Source: Escherichia coli phage AZ21. Taken from it: a DNA stretch of 64,000 bases. The stretch lies in the sequence record LC788708.1, one strand, 5' to 3'. The translations under genes and the position numbers were made by a program. The notes beneath the pieces were generated by a model that did not search any database, had not been told where the DNA came from, and saw only the letters and a program-made list of their open reading frames with translations. Shown here piece by piece: positions 8,545 through 45,017 of the stretch. Each line of letters begins with the position of its first letter. Position 1 is the stretch's first letter.

Positions 8545-9246
8545 ATGAAAGTAAAACCATTTGGTATGCTAGATATTGAATCTCTAGGAACTCCAGGAGA
8601 TTGTGGTACTACCCATATCGCAATGCCTTCATTCGCTTTTGTGGCTATGCATGGAATTGATAAAGACCCTGATCTAGTATTTGTTACTTTAGATGTACAA
8701 GATCAACTTAATTCTGGTGCCAAAGTTACAGCATCTACTCTAGCATTCTGGATGGATCAGGCTAAACATAGCCCGTCTGCTATCCACATTATGGAAGCTA
8801 TGAATGAGCGTAATCCAAAACTGGTTGCCTTCCAAAATGGTAAACATCATTGCACTAATAAACTTGGCTCTAACCATGCTGCCTTCTCTATGGCTCAAAA
8901 TATTATGGAGTTGGCTCTAGGCGAAAATGCTTTGTATTATGGCAATGGCCCAGAGTTTGATATGACTATCTACTCTGCAAACACTTTCCATGCTGGAACC
9001 AATGAAGAAATAGTTCCGTGGAAATTCTGGAACTTGGGTAATGTTAGATCTCTTCGTAATCTCTGGATGCAAACTGGCTATAGTTATAAAGCTCTAGAAA
9101 CCGAAGGTATTAGCTGGGCAATAGCTAAAATGGAGAAGATGGACACCATTCGTTATGGGATCTATCCGGTTAAGCACGACCCAGCATTCGATGCCCTAGT
9201 TGAGAGCTATTGTGTTGCAGCTATGATCGAAAAAATGAAAATTTGA
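8545..9246 (+). CDS. putative DEDDh-type 3'-5' exonuclease
   Basis: Exo I-like LDIESLG near N-terminus and Exo III-like YPVKHDPAFDA near C-terminus. Confidence 0.5.
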   Translation: MKVKPFGMLDIESLGTPGDCGTTHIAMPSFAFVAMHGIDKDPDLVFVTLDVQDQLNSGAKVTASTLAFWMDQAKHSPSAIHIMEAMNERNPKLVAFQNGKHHCTNKLGSNHAAFSMAQNIMELALGENALYYGNGPEFDMTIYSANTFHAGTNEEIVPWKFWNLGNVRSLRNLWMQTGYSYKALETEGISWAIAKMEKMDTIRYGIYPVKHDPAFDALVESYCVAAMIEKMKI

Positions 9247-9247
9247 T

Positions 9248-9276
9248 TTGCTTCCGGCTCCAAAATTCTGTATAAT
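9248..9276 (+). promoter_or_regulatory. sigma70 promoter (T5 early type)
   Basis: TTGCTT-17-TATAAT then CATAAATTTGAG leader. Confidence 0.65.
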
Positions 9277-9316
9277 ATATTCATAAATTTGAGAAAACAA
9301 TAAAAGGAAAACAAAT

Positions 9317-9499
9317 ATGCCAGTATCTAAAAATGTTCGTAAAAATGGTAAGAAAGCTACTCGTAATCTGGGTATCCGTCGTATGGCTGAACGTCAATCA
9401 GGTATCCAGAAAATCTTTGATCTGCTAAATCGTGCTAATCCTAAAATTGATAACAGTAACGATACTGTTCTGCGCACCCTGCTGGCAATTGGTCTGTAA
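9317..9499 (+). CDS. hypothetical basic small protein
   Basis: 60 aa. Confidence 0.35.
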   Translation: MPVSKNVRKNGKKATRNLGIRRMAERQSGIQKIFDLLNRANPKIDNSNDTVLRTLLAIGL

Positions 9500-9552
9500 T
9501 AGACCAAATTTAAACAAATTCAAATCTCAAACTTCATATAAGGAAGCAAATA

Positions 9553-10191
9553 ATGACTACTCGTATCTCTAAAACTCGCGCTCTGGCAACTATCAAATCT
9601 CTGGAAGCTAAAATCCGTAAAGCTACTGAACAACAGCTTCTGATCGCTGTTGGTGAAGGTAAGGATAAAAACCAGGTTGTAGTTGGCGCTGCAATCGAAG
9701 TAGATGCCCTGTCTACTCGTATTAAAACTGATTTCCAATCTCTGCTGGATATGATGTCTCAGCGTGATCGTATTAAATCTGCTCTGATTAAGAGCAATGC
9801 AGAAACAATCGTTGAGATTGGTTCTCGTAAGATGACTGTTGCGGAAGCAATTGAAGCTAAGCGTTCTATGGAGCTTAAAGCTCAGCTGCTGGCTAACATG
9901 CGTAAGCAGTTCCATGCCGCTACGATTAAGTTTAATACGCAGAAAGCACAGTTTGATGCTAAATATGAGCGTTTGCAGGATAGCATGGCTACCCGCGATA
10001 AGAAAACTTCCGAAGATGAAGTTAAAATGCAGCTCAATCTGCTGGAACTCAAGAATACTCCATTCTTGATTGATCCGCTGGAACTGGAGAAGCTGATTAA
10101 GCAGCATGACGAGGAATACCAGGACTTTGCAACAAATGTTGACTTTGTTCTATCCGAGTCTAACGCCTCTACCTTCATTGAAGTAGAGTAA
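9553..10191 (+). CDS. hypothetical coiled-coil protein
   Basis: RBS AAGGAAG then ATG; 212 aa. Confidence 0.45.
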   Translation: MTTRISKTRALATIKSLEAKIRKATEQQLLIAVGEGKDKNQVVVGAAIEVDALSTRIKTDFQSLLDMMSQRDRIKSALIKSNAETIVEIGSRKMTVAEAIEAKRSMELKAQLLANMRKQFHAATIKFNTQKAQFDAKYERLQDSMATRDKKTSEDEVKMQLNLLELKNTPFLIDPLELEKLIKQHDEEYQDFATNVDFVLSESNASTFIEVE

Positions 10192-10574
10192 TAATTTAAA
10201 AGCTAGTAAATCGGTAGACGAAAGCCCAAGCATCTTACCTCGCAGCAGCGGTTGAAATACGAGGTTAAATAAGACCGCTGACCATACTATAAAGTATAAT
10301 CTATTGGAGATTATGTTTATTACACCAGCCTCTTAAGCTGACACGTAAGAACAAAGCGTCGTTGATATTACCGACACAACTTCAAAGATCAACATTTAAG
10401 TATGAAAGCTGAAAAGTTTAAAGAACTCAAACTTCTAAACTTCTAAAGCTAAAAGATGCAAAGTATTCGTTGATGATTCAAACCCTAGATCAAAGGTACA
10501 TGGCTCATAAGATATGGCCTGTGGCGCCTCTAGGCTGTTTATCGGTTTACTAGTTTCACAATTTAAAAATGTAT

Positions 10575-10603
10575 TTGCTAATTTACTAAGTTATCTGTAT
10601 AAT
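10575..10603 (+). promoter_or_regulatory. sigma70 promoter (T5 early type)
   Basis: TTGCTA-17-TATAAT then AAATTGATGAAACGAGG leader. Confidence 0.65.
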
Positions 10604-10633
10604 ATATTTTTAAATTGATGAAACGAGGCTATT

Positions 10634-10951
10634 ATGACTTTTCATATTTTGATTGATGATGTGCGTAATCTTCACGGAATGGACATTATCATTCGAACCC
10701 CAGAAGCCGCTGTAGAGTTTCTGAATAAAACTGATACCACAGGCCACTTCGTTTATATGGATAATGACTTGGCTGTAGATGGTATGGAAGGTTATCAAAT
10801 TCTTCGTTTACTCTTAGAATTTGGGCAGAGACCAAAGAAAGTGGTACTAGTAACCTCAAACCCAGTAGCTAAGCAAAATATGCGTAATGATTTGCTTGAC
10901 TTAGGGTATAAAGAAAATCCCAATCGTGTTGAATATGATTGGCAGGAGTAA
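10634..10951 (+). CDS. CheY-like receiver-domain protein (stand-alone)
   Basis: ILIDDV acidic pocket, YMDNDLAVDGMEG (Asp + MDG-like), VVLVTSN (conserved Thr/Ser) in receiver-domain order; 105 aa. Confidence 0.4.
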   Translation: MTFHILIDDVRNLHGMDIIIRTPEAAVEFLNKTDTTGHFVYMDNDLAVDGMEGYQILRLLLEFGQRPKKVVLVTSNPVAKQNMRNDLLDLGYKENPNRVEYDWQE

Positions 10952-12193: not shown

Positions 12194-12265
12194 GCCGTCC
12201 TAGTATAATTGGTATTATCAAGCCGTAACTGGTGGAAGATGTAGGTTCGAATCCTACGGTCGGTA
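12194..12265 (+). tRNA. tRNA-like element, isotype undetermined
   Basis: Perfect T-arm GTAGG-TTCGAAT-CCTAC and D-loop GG, but acceptor and anticodon stems did not pair cleanly by eye. Confidence 0.35.
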
Positions 12266-15917: not shown

Positions 15918-15994
15918 GGGGGTGTAATCGAATTGGCATAGGTACTGGACTTAAAATTCAGGTTTTGTGGGTTCGAATCCCACCACCCCTACCA
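15918..15994 (+). tRNA. tRNA, anticodon apparently UAA (isotype uncertain), CCA encoded
   Basis: Acceptor GGGGGTG/CACCCCT, anticodon stem CTGGA/TTCAG with loop CTTAAAA, T-arm GTGGG-TTCGAAT-CCCAC; short variable loop is atypical for Leu. Confidence 0.5.
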
Positions 15995-32279: not shown

Positions 32280-32884
32280 TGACTTTTAATACACAACAAT
32301 CTATTCAAGTAGTGCCAGATCATGAACTGAACACATGGGATTATAGCTTTAAAGATTTAACTGCTACTATACAATTTAAATCTATGAAGCTAACATTTGC
32401 ACACACTGATCTTAGAGCCTGTAAAGATCTTGAGGATAAGCTCGAAGATGCTCGTAAGATTTTTGGCAAGGCTCGCATCCCGGCTGATAATCTAATTAAC
32501 GCATTAATCGATGTAGGATACAAACTCGTGAAGACTGAGGTGAACCGCCCTAGTACTCCAGTGACTGTTAGAGATCCGTGGCAGCCAGGGACAATCTCAA
32601 TGCTAAATAAATCATCGGATATACACAATGTTCCATGCGGTGGTGTGGTAAGTAGTACGCAGTCATACAAGTTTGGTGAAGATTACGGCCCTTCTGTGCA
32701 GTTGAAACATACTCAAGAAGCTTTTGAATCTGATATGCGAAGCGTAGCACCTGTGGATGCTGGAGTTTCTAGGAGTTCTGTTTGTACTATTCATTTTAAT
32801 AATCCTAGTAAACATGGAAGTTTAGAGGATGCTATCCTTGAAGCGTTGGGAGCTGCTATTAATGAAGATAAAAGAGGTAGTTAA
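32279..32884 (+). CDS. hypothetical protein
   Basis: 201 aa. Confidence 0.4.
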   Translation: MTFNTQQSIQVVPDHELNTWDYSFKDLTATIQFKSMKLTFAHTDLRACKDLEDKLEDARKIFGKARIPADNLINALIDVGYKLVKTEVNRPSTPVTVRDPWQPGTISMLNKSSDIHNVPCGGVVSSTQSYKFGEDYGPSVQLKHTQEAFESDMRSVAPVDAGVSRSSVCTIHFNNPSKHGSLEDAILEALGAAINEDKRGS

Positions 32885-33774
32885 TGGGATTTTATAGTAA
32901 TAGAAAACCAAAAGGTGTAACTGGTAAATTCGCAGTTGAAGAAAGACCTTTTCCACCGGTCGATGTAGAGAAACTACGTGAACTTCTAGAAATGCTAGAA
33001 GGTTGCCATGAACGTTGTTATTCTGAACTCTCTTTAAATGAGAAACGTGTTGTTGAGATGTTCTGTATTCGTTCAGCTAGAACAGCTAAAGGTACTTCTC
33101 CAAAAGATGAAGTAAAAGAGTACAGAGTTCTAGTGATGCATGCTTGGGCACAACGTTTTGCAGTTCATTCGCTTCAGGAATGGTTTAATCTTCCAGCCTA
33201 TAAAGATTTTCATGTTTACGAAGATGAGGTTATGAATTATAATGAGTTGTATGGTTTGTCCTTCAAAAAGACAGGCTCACCGATGCATGATGCACTCAAT
33301 TCATTCCCTGATCATTACCTTCCAGTTCGTGAATATAGAGATCGTGAAGGAAATAAACCCTGCTTCACTATTTGGAATAAGTCTAAGACGATATCTGATC
33401 TAGATAATTATTGGTTTCGCACAAAAGAAGGATTCCTAGGAACAGAACCTTTACCTAAGGATCTCAAACCTATCCTTCCGCCTGCGAAACCTAAACATGA
33501 AGTAACGATTGCTATTAATAGAATAATTCTAGGAGCAGATGATCTTACTAAACAAATCGCCGCAGTTATCGCAGTTCTGTTTGACGGTACAAATTCTTCT
33601 GCACGTTATGAGAAGCTAACGGATAACAAATTGCAGATACCTAACGAGTTGTATGAGAGTTCGTGCAAGATCTATGATAACTTTAGTAAAGTAGATTACC
33701 CCGTGAGATCCATTAAAGAACTCATGGAGTATGCGGAGATGGGGATGAAAGGAAATCTCATGTTCGATGAATAA
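32884..33774 (+). CDS. hypothetical protein
   Basis: 296 aa; last early-type gene before repeat region. Confidence 0.45.
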   Translation: MGFYSNRKPKGVTGKFAVEERPFPPVDVEKLRELLEMLEGCHERCYSELSLNEKRVVEMFCIRSARTAKGTSPKDEVKEYRVLVMHAWAQRFAVHSLQEWFNLPAYKDFHVYEDEVMNYNELYGLSFKKTGSPMHDALNSFPDHYLPVREYRDREGNKPCFTIWNKSKTISDLDNYWFRTKEGFLGTEPLPKDLKPILPPAKPKHEVTIAINRIILGADDLTKQIAAVIAVLFDGTNSSARYEKLTDNKLQIPNELYESSCKIYDNFSKVDYPVRSIKELMEYAEMGMKGNLMFDE

Positions 33775-33781
33775 ACTCTAC

Positions 33782-33810
33782 TTGACGTTATGATTTCTGC
33801 ATGTTATAAT
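33782..33810 (+). promoter_or_regulatory. sigma70 promoter pointing into the gene-free repeat region
   Basis: TTGACG-17-TATAAT; no convincing ORF downstream. Confidence 0.5.
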
Positions 33811-34138
33811 AACTCTATGAAATAACATAGAATAAAGAGATCCACCCGGATACGGATGGTGGATGGGAAACTTCTATTTCCCCCGTAGCTTGTCGGAGGG
33901 CTAGGGAAATCTTAAGAAGTTTTGTACCATCTCACGCAATTCGTATCCCAGGGGTGGAGCATCTCTTCCAATCTTTGGGGATCTTATACTTAAATTAAAG
34001 GTAAAACTTTTGGTCACATAATTTACATTCAAGATGATACACTGGTTGCCGCCATTCTTCCTAGGATGGCACAACACTTTCTTCTAGACTCCTAAGTTTC
34101 TAGGAATACTAACTCTAGAGTTTACACTAAACTTTGAA

Positions 34139-34876
34139 TCGGATTCGCACATGCTCTAGGGCAGTTTTTCATCTACTATAAATATCCTAGGCCGGTTTTC
34201 CTATACAGGGCGGTTATGGGGAGGGCGGTTATTTCTAGACAATAAAATTTACTCTTGTCAGTCCAGAAATTACTGTCGGATTTGCACATTGTGTTTCTAG
34301 AAATTTATGGTCGGATTTGCACAATTGCCTAAGTTTTTAGGAACATATAATCTCCTGAAAATGGCAGCATTATTTCGGGCCGAAGGCCCATGATTGCCTG
34401 AGTTTTTTTAGAGACACAGAAATTTTCACTTGTCAAGCTATTTTGCCCCATTTTGCTAATAAAATTTTACTTTATCTCCCCTAATCTCAAATTAACCCAA
34501 ATCTTCTCAACTCTTCTCCAAAATCCCCGCAAATCAGGTGCTCCGCACCAAACATGCGCCCCTCCCGTAGTTCCCCCAAGTTTCTCTCGATCTCTCAACT
34601 TCTCCCCAAACTCATACAATCACACACCCTCCAATCGAAGTCACAAAAATCTTGTCGGATTCGCACAAATAAACCCATGTCGGATTTGCACATATTCTAG
34701 TTAATTCCACAGGATTGATGCGCAGCATCGGATTGCTGGAGTTTTTGGGAGAATTCATTGTCGGATTCGCACACTATAAAAATTTTTCGGGTCGGATTTG
34801 CACACTACCAAAAATTGTCGGATTCGCACATACACGCCCACGCGTAATCCATGGGGGCAAATGTCGGATTTGCACA
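34139..34876 (+). repeat. array of nine direct copies of GTCGGATT(T/C)GCACA
   Basis: Copies at about 34139, 34275, 34310, 34654, 34679, 34760, 34791, 34817, 34863, irregular spacing. Confidence 0.85.
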
Positions 34877-34881
34877 AAAGC

Positions 34882-34899
34882 GCAGGGCAATTGCCCTGC
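34882..34899. repeat. perfect 18 bp palindrome GCAGGGCAATTGCCCTGC
   Basis: Read directly. Confidence 0.85.
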
Positions 34900-34904
34900 T
34901 TGCC

Positions 34905-35098
34905 TGAATGCGAATGATAATGAGAATCATTTGCATTTAAAAAGCGGAATGAGAATGATAATAATTCGCATTTAAGAATGGAAGTGAGAATTATTCAGGA
35001 AGTGAAACGATTCTCATTTAAAAAGTGAAACGATTCTCATTTAGAAAGTGAAACGCGAATGATAATGATTCGTATTTAAGAATGGAAGTGAGAAACAC
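34905..35098. repeat. GAATGATAATGA / AGTGAAACGATTCTCATTTA / CGCATTTAAGAATGGAAGTGAGAA repeat block
   Basis: AGTGAAACGATTCTCATTTA twice in tandem (35001, 35025); C(G/A)(C/T)ATTTAAGAATGGAAGTGAGAA twice (34968, 35071). Confidence 0.8.
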
Positions 35099-35109
35099 TA
35101 TTATTTAAG

Positions 35110-35118
35110 TTATCCACA
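35110..35118 (+). promoter_or_regulatory. DnaA-box consensus TTATCCACA
   Basis: Exact 9-mer; TTATCAACA variants at about 35122, 35171, 35183. Confidence 0.6.
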
Positions 35119-35199
35119 GACTTATCAACAGCACGATTTGACTTGACAGAATCCTAGCCATTTTGAGGCGTTATCAACAGACTTATCAACAGCTTATCC

Positions 35200-35219
35200 T
35201 ACTGTATAAATATACAGTA
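35200..35219. promoter_or_regulatory. LexA-box-like palindrome TACTGTATAAATATACAGTA
   Basis: CTGT-N8-ACAG with AT-rich core, close to the E. coli SOS-box consensus. Confidence 0.55.
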
Positions 35220-35413
35220 TTCCTATGCAGTGAATAATTCTAATATACAGCTAAAACGCTCTCAAACGCATTCTAACGCGTTTAATTTTGGTGGGGATAC
35301 TAAAACAAGGGCAAAATTGGAGGAGGCTTGAAAATTAGTTAGCTCGCTAATGATCACACACGGCGACACGTAACACCCTAACCATTAGCAGGCTAACCAT
35401 CGCGGGCGTGGTC

Positions 35414-35434
35414 AAATGAGAATGATTCTCATTT
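35414..35434. repeat. 21 bp palindrome AAATGAGAATGATTCTCATTT
   Basis: Same GAGAATGAT core as the upstream repeat block. Confidence 0.8.
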
Positions 35435-35585
35435 GTGGATTGGGGGCGCTTCCTGATAGTTGCGCCCCGTGATTATTATAGTAGGGGGCAACCGTTACGC
35501 TTTGCCCACTCCCGCCACTCATCTTGGTGCCTAGACTTGCGACGGCGTACTAAAAACCGCTTGTACCAGTGATTAAACCATCGTT

Positions 35586-35789
35586 TCATAAATCCTCCTC
35601 CGGTAGTCGATGCGTGATCTTTTCCTCCTCCCCATAGGAATCCACCAAATACTGATAATAACCATCGTGATCATAAATCACTTTATCATATTCCCCACGC
35701 TCGACCGCTTGCCGATTTTCCAACGTATCAGGCACAAAGAAAGTATCAACGGTAACAGTAGTTTTAGTTACAACAATTTTATCACTCAT
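35586..35789 (-). CDS. hypothetical pre-early protein
   Basis: 67 aa acidic; last gene of minus-strand block. Confidence 0.4.
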   Translation of the reverse strand: MSDKIVVTKTTVTVDTFFVPDTLENRQAVERGEYDKVIYDHDGYYQYLVDSYGEEEKITHRLPEEDL

Positions 35790-35915
35790 AATGCCATCGC
35801 CCCTAGAATGAGAATGATTATCAATATCATTGTGAAGCCATTACCAAATCGTAAACGCTGGGAATGTTTCCCAGCGGTATTATTAGACTTATGGCTTTGT
35901 GTTTTTCGCCACCAG

Positions 35916-39224: not shown

Positions 39225-39233
39225 GTGGATAAG
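39225..39233 (-). promoter_or_regulatory. DnaA-box consensus (TGTGGATAA on + strand)
   Basis: Exact reverse complement of TTATCCACA; second copy at about 39298-39306. Confidence 0.6.
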
Positions 39234-40818: not shown

Positions 40819-41226
40819 ATGACTAACGCAAAAACCGCAAAATTCGCATGGAATGAAGAAAACACTCAGAAAGCTGTTACCATGTACCAGCAGTTAATCA
40901 ACGAAAACGGTTTAGATTTTGCAAATAGCGACGGCCTGAAAGAGATTGCAAAAGCAGTAGGCGCGGCCTCCCCCGTATCCGTTCGGTCAAAATTGACCAG
41001 TGCAAAAGCCTATCAAAAAAGCGATAAGCCGCGTAAAGTTGGCGGCGGTAGCTCTGTGCGTAAAGCTCACTATGTGCGAGTAATTGCAAAACACGCTATC
41101 GATTCCGGTATTATCAAAGACGCCGATGATCTGGCAAGCCTTGAAAGTGCTAAACTGGAAACGCTGGACGCGGTGGCGCAACTGTTAGGCGTTGCCGATG
41201 AAGTAAAACAAGCCGTAGGTGAATAA
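40819..41226 (+). CDS. hypothetical pre-early protein, possible A2 homolog
   Basis: 135 aa; RBS TAGGAG; sits on the inner side of the A1-like gene with one small ORF between; name assigned by position and size only. Confidence 0.4.
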   Translation: MTNAKTAKFAWNEENTQKAVTMYQQLINENGLDFANSDGLKEIAKAVGAASPVSVRSKLTSAKAYQKSDKPRKVGGGSSVRKAHYVRVIAKHAIDSGIIKDADDLASLESAKLETLDAVAQLLGVADEVKQAVGE

Positions 41227-44118: not shown

Positions 44119-44853
44119 ATGAATCAAGTTAAAACGAATATTTCCCGTAACTTCCCGCATATTTCCCGCGTCATGATCTGGGATCTTGATGGCACTATCG
44201 TTAATTCATTCCATCGTGTAGCGCCTTGCTTTGATAGTGAGGGTAATCTAGATTTAAATAAGTATAAGAATGAGGCTTGCAAACATGATTTAATAATGCA
44301 GGATACTTTATTGCCTTTGGTGGAATATATGCGCCAATGCATGAATGACGCAAATACTTTAAACATTATTTGTACCGCTCGATTAATGAGCAAATCGGAT
44401 TATTATTATTTGCGCAAACAAGGCTTGCGAGGGCGTGGGGATAGCAATATCCGCGTGTTTTCCCGCGACACGCTGCATAAATATTTTGAAGCTGATAAGG
44501 TTAGCGAGATATACCACAGTAAAGACGCAGTTTATAAATCGTATTACTTTGAATTATTTAAACAGCTATATCCGAACGCTGATTTCACAATGATTGATGA
44601 TCATAAAGGTGTATTATCAGCGGCGGCGTCATACGGATTTAAAACGCTAGACGCGCAAGCCGTTAACGATATTCTATCAATCGGCGTGGCATTGATAGGC
44701 GGAACCTTTATTGATGAATCTCTCGATGATGATAATGATTATCAGTTCCTAGCCGATCGATTGAAATTATGTTGGGAAAGTATGACCGAAGAAGAACGCG
44801 CAGAATATAGTTGCAGCCCGCAACAATATATTGAGAAATTAAAAGTTGCGTAA
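44119..44853 (+). CDS. dmp: HAD-family 5'-deoxyribonucleotidase (Dmp-like)
   Basis: HAD motif I VMIWDLDGT near N-terminus; 244 aa from the RBS-supported ATG; same CCCTTTAATGGAG leader as the A1-like gene. Confidence 0.7.
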   Translation: MNQVKTNISRNFPHISRVMIWDLDGTIVNSFHRVAPCFDSEGNLDLNKYKNEACKHDLIMQDTLLPLVEYMRQCMNDANTLNIICTARLMSKSDYYYLRKQGLRGRGDSNIRVFSRDTLHKYFEADKVSEIYHSKDAVYKSYYFELFKQLYPNADFTMIDDHKGVLSAAASYGFKTLDAQAVNDILSIGVALIGGTFIDESLDDDNDYQFLADRLKLCWESMTEEERAEYSCSPQQYIEKLKVA

Positions 44854-45017
44854 TAATTAAAGTTGAAATAGTTTCATCCTGCAATTAAAATGGTTGCGGG
44901 ATGAAACAATTACCCTGCTAATAGTAACGGGGGTGGCGGTTAGCAGACTAAGTATTCTCCCCCAACCCACTGGACACACCTCCATGTGTAATCCTATGAA
45001 ATTTGGCAAAAGTCAAA

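Follow-up and report, generated by a model that had tools for sequence, protein, structure and literature searches.

The nine-copy direct repeat array at the terminal-repeat junction of T5-like phages: candidate docking sites for a phage-encoded DNA-binding protein

How the entry of T5 DNA stops at ∼8% of the genome and is then restarted has been a question since the 1960s, and a second process, the cutting and duplication of exact terminal repeats, is located at the same place. An array of short direct repeats is among the few discrete, family-wide conserved cis elements where both processes happen and, T5 engineering now being possible, is an obvious target. The function of these repeats is considered here from a 64-kb window (the whole stretch of DNA that was analysed, 64,000 nt from Escherichia coli phage AZ21; LC788708.1), which matches Escherichia coli phage AZ23 (LC788707.1) at 100% identity and is oriented in reverse of the T5 map; AZ23 is a Tequintavirus whose assembly contains a single collapsed terminal repeat.

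The repeat unit is a 14-mer, GTCGGATTYGCACA, which motif search detected in eight exact copies and one copy with a single mismatch (ATCGGATTCGCACA), all nine on the + strand between 34138 and 34876, a span of 739 bp. Successive copies start 137, 35, 344, 25, 81, 31, 26, and 46 bp apart; five are of the T variant and four of the C variant, and the motif is non-palindromic. With up to two mismatches allowed, 10 matches are found in the whole 64-kb window against 0.44 expected, a number reached by 0/100 shuffles, and TCGGATTYGC is confined in the window to the nine copies. Motif search and shuffles hence confirm the preliminary description of nine same-orientation copies, irregularly spaced over ∼740 bp, except at its start: the array had been taken to begin at 34139, which is the TCGG of a first copy that begins with A at 34138. 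In the full 104-kb AZ23 genome the sole further near-copies are a tandem pair outside the window, within the gene for D13, an SbcC-like exonuclease (LC788707.1, 6654–6682). The two units of this pair, GTCGGATTTGCACC and then GTAGG(A/T)TTTGCACA, lie 15 bp apart in the orientation of the array and are kept in BF23 and the Epseptimavirus SmurfNell; they are coding (VQIL/VQIR) and inseparable from coding constraint. Matches with three mismatches on the − strand at 12244–12257 and 15970–15983 (GGATTCGAACC) resemble tRNA T-arms, probably belong to the phage tRNA cluster and are unrelated to the array.

The array is already known from GenBank annotation and the literature: it is the annotated DRD array of the T5 iss/terminal-repeat junction region. 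Each copy is labelled 'direct repeat D copy 1–9' in the T5 record AY587007.1, with the same sequence (TGTGCRAATCCGAC on the T5 strand), copies 1–6 lying within the left terminal repeat (end 10139) and copies 7–9 just past it, and the major 7.9% nick directly adjoining copy 1. The aligned counterpart in T5 is 9328–10659, where a second record, AY543070.1, places the 'injection stop signal (iss)' (9140–10149, covering D1–D6). The 14-mer and the spacing of its nine copies are identical in window and T5, and the location also agrees, with the last early gene (ORF018-like) on one side and the pre-early genes on the other, the end of the long terminal repeat (LTR) within the array, and the 7.9% nick site, palindrome J, the DRC repeats, and the paired DnaA boxes as neighbors. 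AZ23 differs in having no intact tenth copy (best window match at 32614, 3 mismatches). In T5, 'DRD copy 10' lies in an ORF019-like early gene, and such a copy, exact or with one mismatch in many relatives, is found 1.7–2.6 kb upstream of the array in many T5-like loci (e.g., L052 at 2474, L023, and L020); it is not kept in AZ23. The "nine DRD repeats" were listed in Repeat Region 3 of the iss region with no role ascribed to them (Davison, 2020, bioRxiv 10.1101/866236); the same study found the region conserved in 25 T5-like phages, gave a shear point at ∼9618 in T5 that is a calculated value, and favored the paired DnaA boxes within the IRD'-spacer-IRC' element as the stop signal. In a 2026 preprint the iss is characterized solely as non-coding DNA rich in repeats. 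The iss and DRD annotations bear out the earlier placement of the array at the T5 injection-stop region; its assignment to the inner edge of the pre-early block is too simple, as the array straddles the terminal-repeat boundary. The accompanying suggestion, that the array may belong to a signal pausing DNA entry or be a site for a pre-early DNA-binding protein, agrees with a conjecture already current in the field. That reading overlooked that the feature was already described, that three copies lie outside the terminal repeat and that the geometry also suits a packaging signal. What appears to be new is that the array straddles the repeat end, that its core reaches Vibrio phages, that the motif drifts between lineages and that HNH insertions are tolerated, together with a predicted GcrA/Myb-like fold of the A2 protein and a family-wide promoter and long hairpin beside the array.

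The position of the repeat end was located via nine T5-like genomes that carry both repeats, whose contigs end ...gagttttta/GAGCCACAG (also given as ...gagttttta/GAGCCACAGAAATTTTCACTTGTCAAGC; the slash marks the boundary). By homology to these, the inner end of the long terminal repeat is placed at ∼34410/34411 (...gagttttttta/gagacacagaaattttcacttgtcaagc) and the outer end at 44976/44977, ∼123 bp past dmp. In the right-hand copy this inner end would form the physical right end of the genome, and concatemers would be cut there. Numbered as in T5, the copies outside the terminal repeat are DRD 9 (34138–34151; ATCGGATTCGCACA, with A for G at position 1), DRD 8 (34275–34288) and DRD 7 (34310–34323), the last of which ends 87 bp short of the boundary; lying outside the terminal repeat, these three are therefore also outside the first-step DNA. 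Inside it are DRD 6 (34654–34667; 244 bp from the repeat end), DRD 5 (34679–34692), DRD 4 (34760–34773), DRD 3 (34791–34804), DRD 2 (34817–34830), and DRD 1 (34863–34876); all copies other than DRD 9 are exact, and all nine are on the + strand. DRD 1 is directly adjoined by the homolog of the T5 major 7.9% single-strand nick site (GCGC) with palindrome J (34880–34899; conservation 0.97), which on the − strand can also be read as a terminator-like hairpin for the pre-early transcripts (terminator scan). Among 20 relatives DRD 1 is the most conserved copy (0.99) and the copy at 34138 the least (column identity 0.60).

The preliminary description had proposed a search of other T5-like genomes, by which it would be refuted if the motif were lost from related phages. 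The search did not refute it: the motif occupies the equivalent place in ∼450 phage records, which carry the region, and extends to further genera and subfamilies. The T5 spacing pattern is identical in several IMG/VR T5-like genomes, with minor variants in most others. Conservation among 20 non-identical relatives is higher in the columns of the motif than elsewhere in the region (0.88 vs. 0.76; Mann-Whitney p = 4e-9), which is itself well conserved as a whole. My1, Sugarland-type, and Vibrio (Thalassavirus) phages retain the core TCGGATTTGCAC, and four divergent metagenomic contigs carry the D motif. In distant lineages the spacers are unalignable and the spacing is changed, the motif alone being kept, in the same orientation. 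My1 (RTCGGATTTGCACT) has three copies outside the repeat and six inside over a span of 942 bp; IME260 and Sugarland (RTCGGATWTGCACA) have 10–12 copies including a 27-bp periodic block, and in IME260 six copies are outside the repeat and five inside (116 and 138 bp, respectively), the span being ∼660 bp. In Vibrio phage Chester (Ermolyevavirinae; A1 34% identical), eight copies of T(C/A)G(G/A)ATTTGCACC span ∼430 bp, all of them outside an exact 8006-bp repeat (39 bp); the module formed by D1 and GCGCAGG is also found in Chester, 30 bp outside the repeat, and as a remnant in Proteus phage 1. Drifted motifs are present in Vibrio phage D260 (TAGAWTTCGCACAT) and Aeromonas phage AhSzw-1 (TCGRATAAGTACT), and Proteus phage 1 contains only remnants of the D motif and unrelated repeats. 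Furthermore, several viable phages of Epseptimavirus type (loci L045 and L061; records NR01, MET_P1_179_112, vB_Sen_SG_WM_RUS_R2, and falkor) carry an HNH homing-endonuclease gene within the array, between the DRD 5 and DRD 3 equivalents, splitting it by ∼600 bp, which argues that the exact spacing of the D copies is not required. A role as a tail-length ruler (739 bp corresponds to ∼250 nm, approximately the T5/BF23 tail) was rejected on the spans of 942, ∼660, and ∼430 bp and these ∼600-bp insertions. The array is likewise no CRISPR array, with units of 14 bp rather than repeats of 24–48 bp, spacing of 25–344 bp rather than regular, and spacers that are conserved between phages rather than unique.

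The array lies in a 1.8-kb non-coding region between convergent units, the early genes ending at 33774 (+) and the pre-early genes at 35586 (−). The region had been called gene-free, and no CDS is annotated between 33774 and 35586 in either AZ23 or T5. Small ORFs can be called mechanically at 34453–34704, intact in 4/20 relatives, and at 34715–34975, intact in 11/20 and interrupted by a stop in T5 itself; a coding explanation for the array was rejected, such ORFs not being kept as frames among relatives. Directly after the last early gene is a strong sigma-70 extended −10 promoter (33782–33810, +; TTGACG-17-TGnTATAAT) aimed at the array and the terminal repeat; this promoter is without annotation in T5 AY587007. 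Its position and orientation are kept in 9/9 Demerecviridae lineages (TTGACA-17-TGnTATAAT, 10–12 of 12 matches; equivalents at L001 1281, L039(rc) 2101, L059(rc) 2738, L085 7733, L088 7958, L084 6645, L096 2523, and L097 2511), and no ORF is found downstream. Immediately 3′ of the promoter is a long near-perfect hairpin (33835–33967, +; T5 equivalent L001 ∼1340–1490) with a minimum free energy of −67 kcal/mol and a z-score of −4.7 in the window and −6.9 in T5. A long hairpin of 100–180 nt is present in most of the nine lineages, with the + strand the more stable in 7/9, although AZ23 and T5 themselves already differ in its primary sequence. The hairpin might represent a structured RNA so far without annotation, or else a cruciform element in the DNA.

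An ORF-less strong promoter aimed at the array in nine lineages and followed by a conserved long hairpin, with all motif copies oriented like the promoter, might mean that the motif acts in RNA, the repeats in the 33782–33810 transcript being protein-binding or processing sites, or the transcript being antisense to the pre-early genes. This is considered very improbable: hairpins and T-runs intervene between the promoter and the inner copies, the motifs have no consistent local structure, and a constant orientation is expected anyway of a region that is syntenic as a whole. No credible Rfam match was obtained in 33500–35800, where the only two matches are at chance level (E 0.68 and 0.98).

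Across the region the elements follow one another in a conserved order: early genes, promoter, hairpin, D array, GCGC nick site, tandem repeats, paired DnaA boxes, and pre-early genes. The repeat boundary floats, falling inside the array in T5, My1, and IME260 and beyond the whole array in Chester. With a fixed order and a floating boundary, the array is tied to the end of the pre-early/iss module, at the close of the first-step DNA, rather than to a fixed cut distance. The six copies that occur in both repeats of T5-type genomes, and the proposal of an A1/A2 target right of this block in both repeats (the restriction-site model of Davison, 2020), could point to recombination or circularization between the left and right repeats, or to cleavage by A1/A2 at the same site in both. 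Such a role is highly unlikely, as the copies in Chester, all outside the exact 8006-bp repeat, occur once per virion genome, and the motif is non-palindromic.

The geometry also bears on packaging and concatemer processing. The D sites could be bound by the small terminase or an accessory factor, marking the inner repeat end and positioning its cutting or duplication; the inner repeat end becomes the right genome end, which should be packaged first because the left end is ejected first. Phage packaging sites in which several short sites flank a defined terminase cut include the R sites of lambda cosB, the hexamers of P1 pac, and SPP1 pacL/pacR, which the D array resembles as a candidate only. 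It brackets or adjoins the repeat boundary in all lineages with defined ends (T5/AZ23, My1, IME260, and Chester), the boundary in these four lying inside the array or within 39 bp of it, as is expected of a terminase site, and the genome has essentially no further D motif. At the opposite repeat end there is hardly any non-coding DNA, with ∼165 bp between ORF151 and dmp, so that the complex site is at the presumed initiation end. Against this reading, the distance from array to cut varies by lineage, from 39 to 353 bp, and a boundary that shifts from within the array to beyond it means that the array cannot set the cut position precisely. Moreover, in Chester there are zero copies on the packaged side of the initiating cut, and the N-terminal helix-turn-helix (HTH) of the small terminase does not follow the conservation of the motif, its helix varying among lineages whose motif is identical, which speaks indirectly against binding by the small terminase. 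A packaging role is the main rival reading, possible but on balance doubtful.

A further parallel is provided by T7, the best-studied phage with exact repeats, in which heptamer arrays have, according to the older literature, a role in concatemer processing. There, short repeats in the same orientation (CCTAAAG, with CCTAAGG/CATAAAG-type units before the right repeat) abut and enter the 160-bp terminal repeat, and ORF-less promoters are aimed at the repeat, A0 leftward at 224 inside the heptamer array and phiOR at 39229, both firing into it, as might the conserved promoter at the T5-like locus. The T7 units are 7-mers with a regular 13-bp period, whereas those described here are 14-mers irregularly spaced by 25–344 bp, and the two share no sequence similarity; T7 has no comparable long DNA inverted repeat, only short arms. 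Packaging signals of the T5/T7 type are described as poorly understood in 2026 reviews. A consensus cut site shared by the two T5 repeat ends was sought and rejected, as they have in common only a weak inverted 'TCCAC', which is unconvincing.

Conservation over a long distance, combined with variation between phage lineages of similar hosts, argues for a phage-encoded sequence-specific binder rather than a host factor, and the drift of the motif, which differs between two Vibrio phages, points to the same. One candidate host factor would be DnaA. Two pairs of DnaA-type boxes, with 3 bp within each pair, can be read on the + strand at 35110–35191 (TTATCCACA at 35110–35118 with TTATCAACA at 35122–35130, and TTATCAACA at 35171–35179 with a box at 35183–35191), and are the candidate stop signal of Davison. 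The D copies would then be low-affinity boxes for a host protein such as DnaA, the 3′ half of the motif (ATTTGCACA) serving as a degenerate box; this would extend Davison's model, where DnaA bound to the membrane retains the DNA as it enters. ATTTGCACA matches TTWTNCACA at 8/9 positions in the five T-variant copies, genuine paired boxes lie 240–330 bp from the array, and the core is shared by phages infecting E. coli, Salmonella, Klebsiella, and Pectobacterium and by one Vibrio lineage. The match falls to 7/9 in the four C-variant copies, however, and the Chester copies end in GCACC, the final A having been lost. The conserved part of the motif (TCGGATTTGCAC) also includes a 5′ half foreign to the DnaA box, the core reaching 5 bp past it, and the motif differs from one Vibrio phage to the other and has been replaced in those of Aeromonas and Proteus, whereas the canonical TTATCCACA boxes of these phages are intact. 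Low-affinity binding of DnaA is therefore regarded as improbable. Direct repeats of 12–22 bp in one orientation near DnaA boxes in non-coding DNA also recall iterons and the DnaA-box clusters of oriC and datA, from which the array differs in that it has no adjacent initiator gene and in that a DnaA-box match covers half of the conserved motif. An iteron-type origin was rejected, the flanking genes encoding small hypothetical proteins in converging operons; T5 origins are located near the middle of the genome (literature cited by Davison, 2020, bioRxiv 10.1101/866236).

Candidate phage-encoded binders were compared for A2 and the small terminase. The A2 gene (40819–41226, +) encodes a 135-aa pre-early DNA-binding protein that is 98% identical to T5 A2, belongs to PHROG 1725 ('DNA binding protein') and is the candidate trans-acting partner of the array; the literature describes A2 as dimeric, able to bind DNA and associated with A1 at the membrane. 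In an AlphaFold2 model (pLDDT 84), its N-terminal domain resembles the DNA-binding domain of GcrA and Myb repeats, with a predicted HTH. The putative recognition helix VRSKL is unchanged in T5, My1, IME260, and Chester and is IRSKL in D260, all of which have GCAC-type motifs; it is VRQKL in the Aeromonas phage and VRTKL in the Proteus phage, in which the motif is changed or lost. In the small terminase, by contrast, helix three of the N-terminal HTH differs from lineage to lineage where the motif is shared. The modeled fold and the conserved recognition helix lend soft support to A2 as the binder of the D motif. Covariation of the motif with a single A2 residue, S57, was undermined by contig P0052, which combines VRGKL with the canonical motif. 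Overall A2 identity does not clearly track motif presence, and profiling A2 against the small terminase by overall identity gave a weak hint at best, A2 alone being not clearly closer to that of the Proteus phage than of Chester and the bit scores disagreeing. A link through A1 was uninformative, its homologs in Autographiviridae and other phages lying in replication modules without A2 or a two-step context.

The reading preferred here, plausible if somewhat short of an even chance, is that a DNA-binding protein of the phage, for which A2 is the foremost candidate, docks on the D array and acts where DNA transfer pauses and restarts, on the DNA just distal to the pause point, so as to restart or drive the second step. 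The array would be a series of same-orientation sites for a phage-encoded sequence-specific protein, and part of the cis-acting module that closes the first-step-transfer DNA. The order of entry is the pre-early genes, the paired DnaA boxes, the DRC/DRE repeats, the GCGC nick site and then D1 to D9, which would make the array the first DNA to move when transfer restarts. Pre-early A2 may bind the D sites one after another as they emerge, and either rectify the inward movement, with binding acting as a ratchet, or bring A1 to the DNA at the pause, whereupon second-step transfer would restart. We show the motif and its statistics, its identity with T5 DRD, its placement relative to the repeat end, nick site, and genes, and its conservation and drift by lineage, along with a modeled HTH fold of A2; we infer protein binding to the motif, A2 as the binder and an action of that binding on DNA transfer. 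A role in transfer is favored because the copies are T5 DRD 1–9 in the annotated iss region, directly distal to the 7.9% nick, because the motif is more conserved than the surrounding region and alone survives in distant lineages, and because it drifts with phage lineage while the order of elements is kept around a floating repeat boundary; the flexible spacing revealed by the HNH insertions favors independent binding sites.

Several observations count against the docking-site reading. If transfer pauses at or before D1, the array is still in the tail or envelope and inaccessible to a cytoplasmic protein, and the 7.9% figure may merely reflect breakage at the nick. The model gives no role to the six copies duplicated in the right terminal repeat and leaves the D-like tandem pair in D13 unexplained. 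With regard to A2, the helix correlation rests on two lineages, the VRGKL contig keeps the canonical motif and Proteus phage 1 has A1 and A2 with almost no D motif, and the geometry of a packaging signal fits about equally. The wider prospect, a real one that the balance nevertheless leans against, is that the D array is either the cis element through which A2/A1 restart T5 transfer, conserved with its binder from coliphages to Vibrio phages, or, with the promoter and hairpin, the first signal for packaging or repeat duplication to be defined in a phage with long terminal repeats.

Other sequence features were detected around the junction. Immediately outside the inferred repeat end is a GC hairpin (34378–34409; GGGCCGAAGGCCC) followed 13 nt later by a T-run. 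Genomes of the T5 and IME260 types keep the junction TTTTTA/GAGCCACAG; just inside the repeat is a TTTTCAnTTGTCAAnC...CCCC block, present also in My1 and the Proteus phage. Sequences resembling the Fur box GATAATGATAATCATTATC have six matches with up to three mismatches in the window against 0.05 expected, all in the terminal repeat (34916–34934, 35810–35828, and 44725–44749). One is in the DRC repeats beside the nick site, a short pre-early ORF has one in or near its 5′ end, and a perfect 7-1-7 Fur-like motif (TGATAATGATTATCA) at 44730 is in dmp, where it encodes DDDNDYQ and may be a coding coincidence. T5 conserves the Fur-like sites, none of which occurs in the Vibrio or Proteus loci, and they go unmentioned in Davison (2020). 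In the Vibrio and Aeromonas T5-like phages, tandem 8-bp units of the TCTAGACT/TCTATCCA type (∼14–20 units) replace the DRC/DRE repeats of T5, at L085 8514–8673 (Chester), L089 8476–8643 (AhSzw-1), and L088 9048–9101 (D260), and in Chester the terminal-repeat boundary coincides with the exact start of this 8-bp tandem array.
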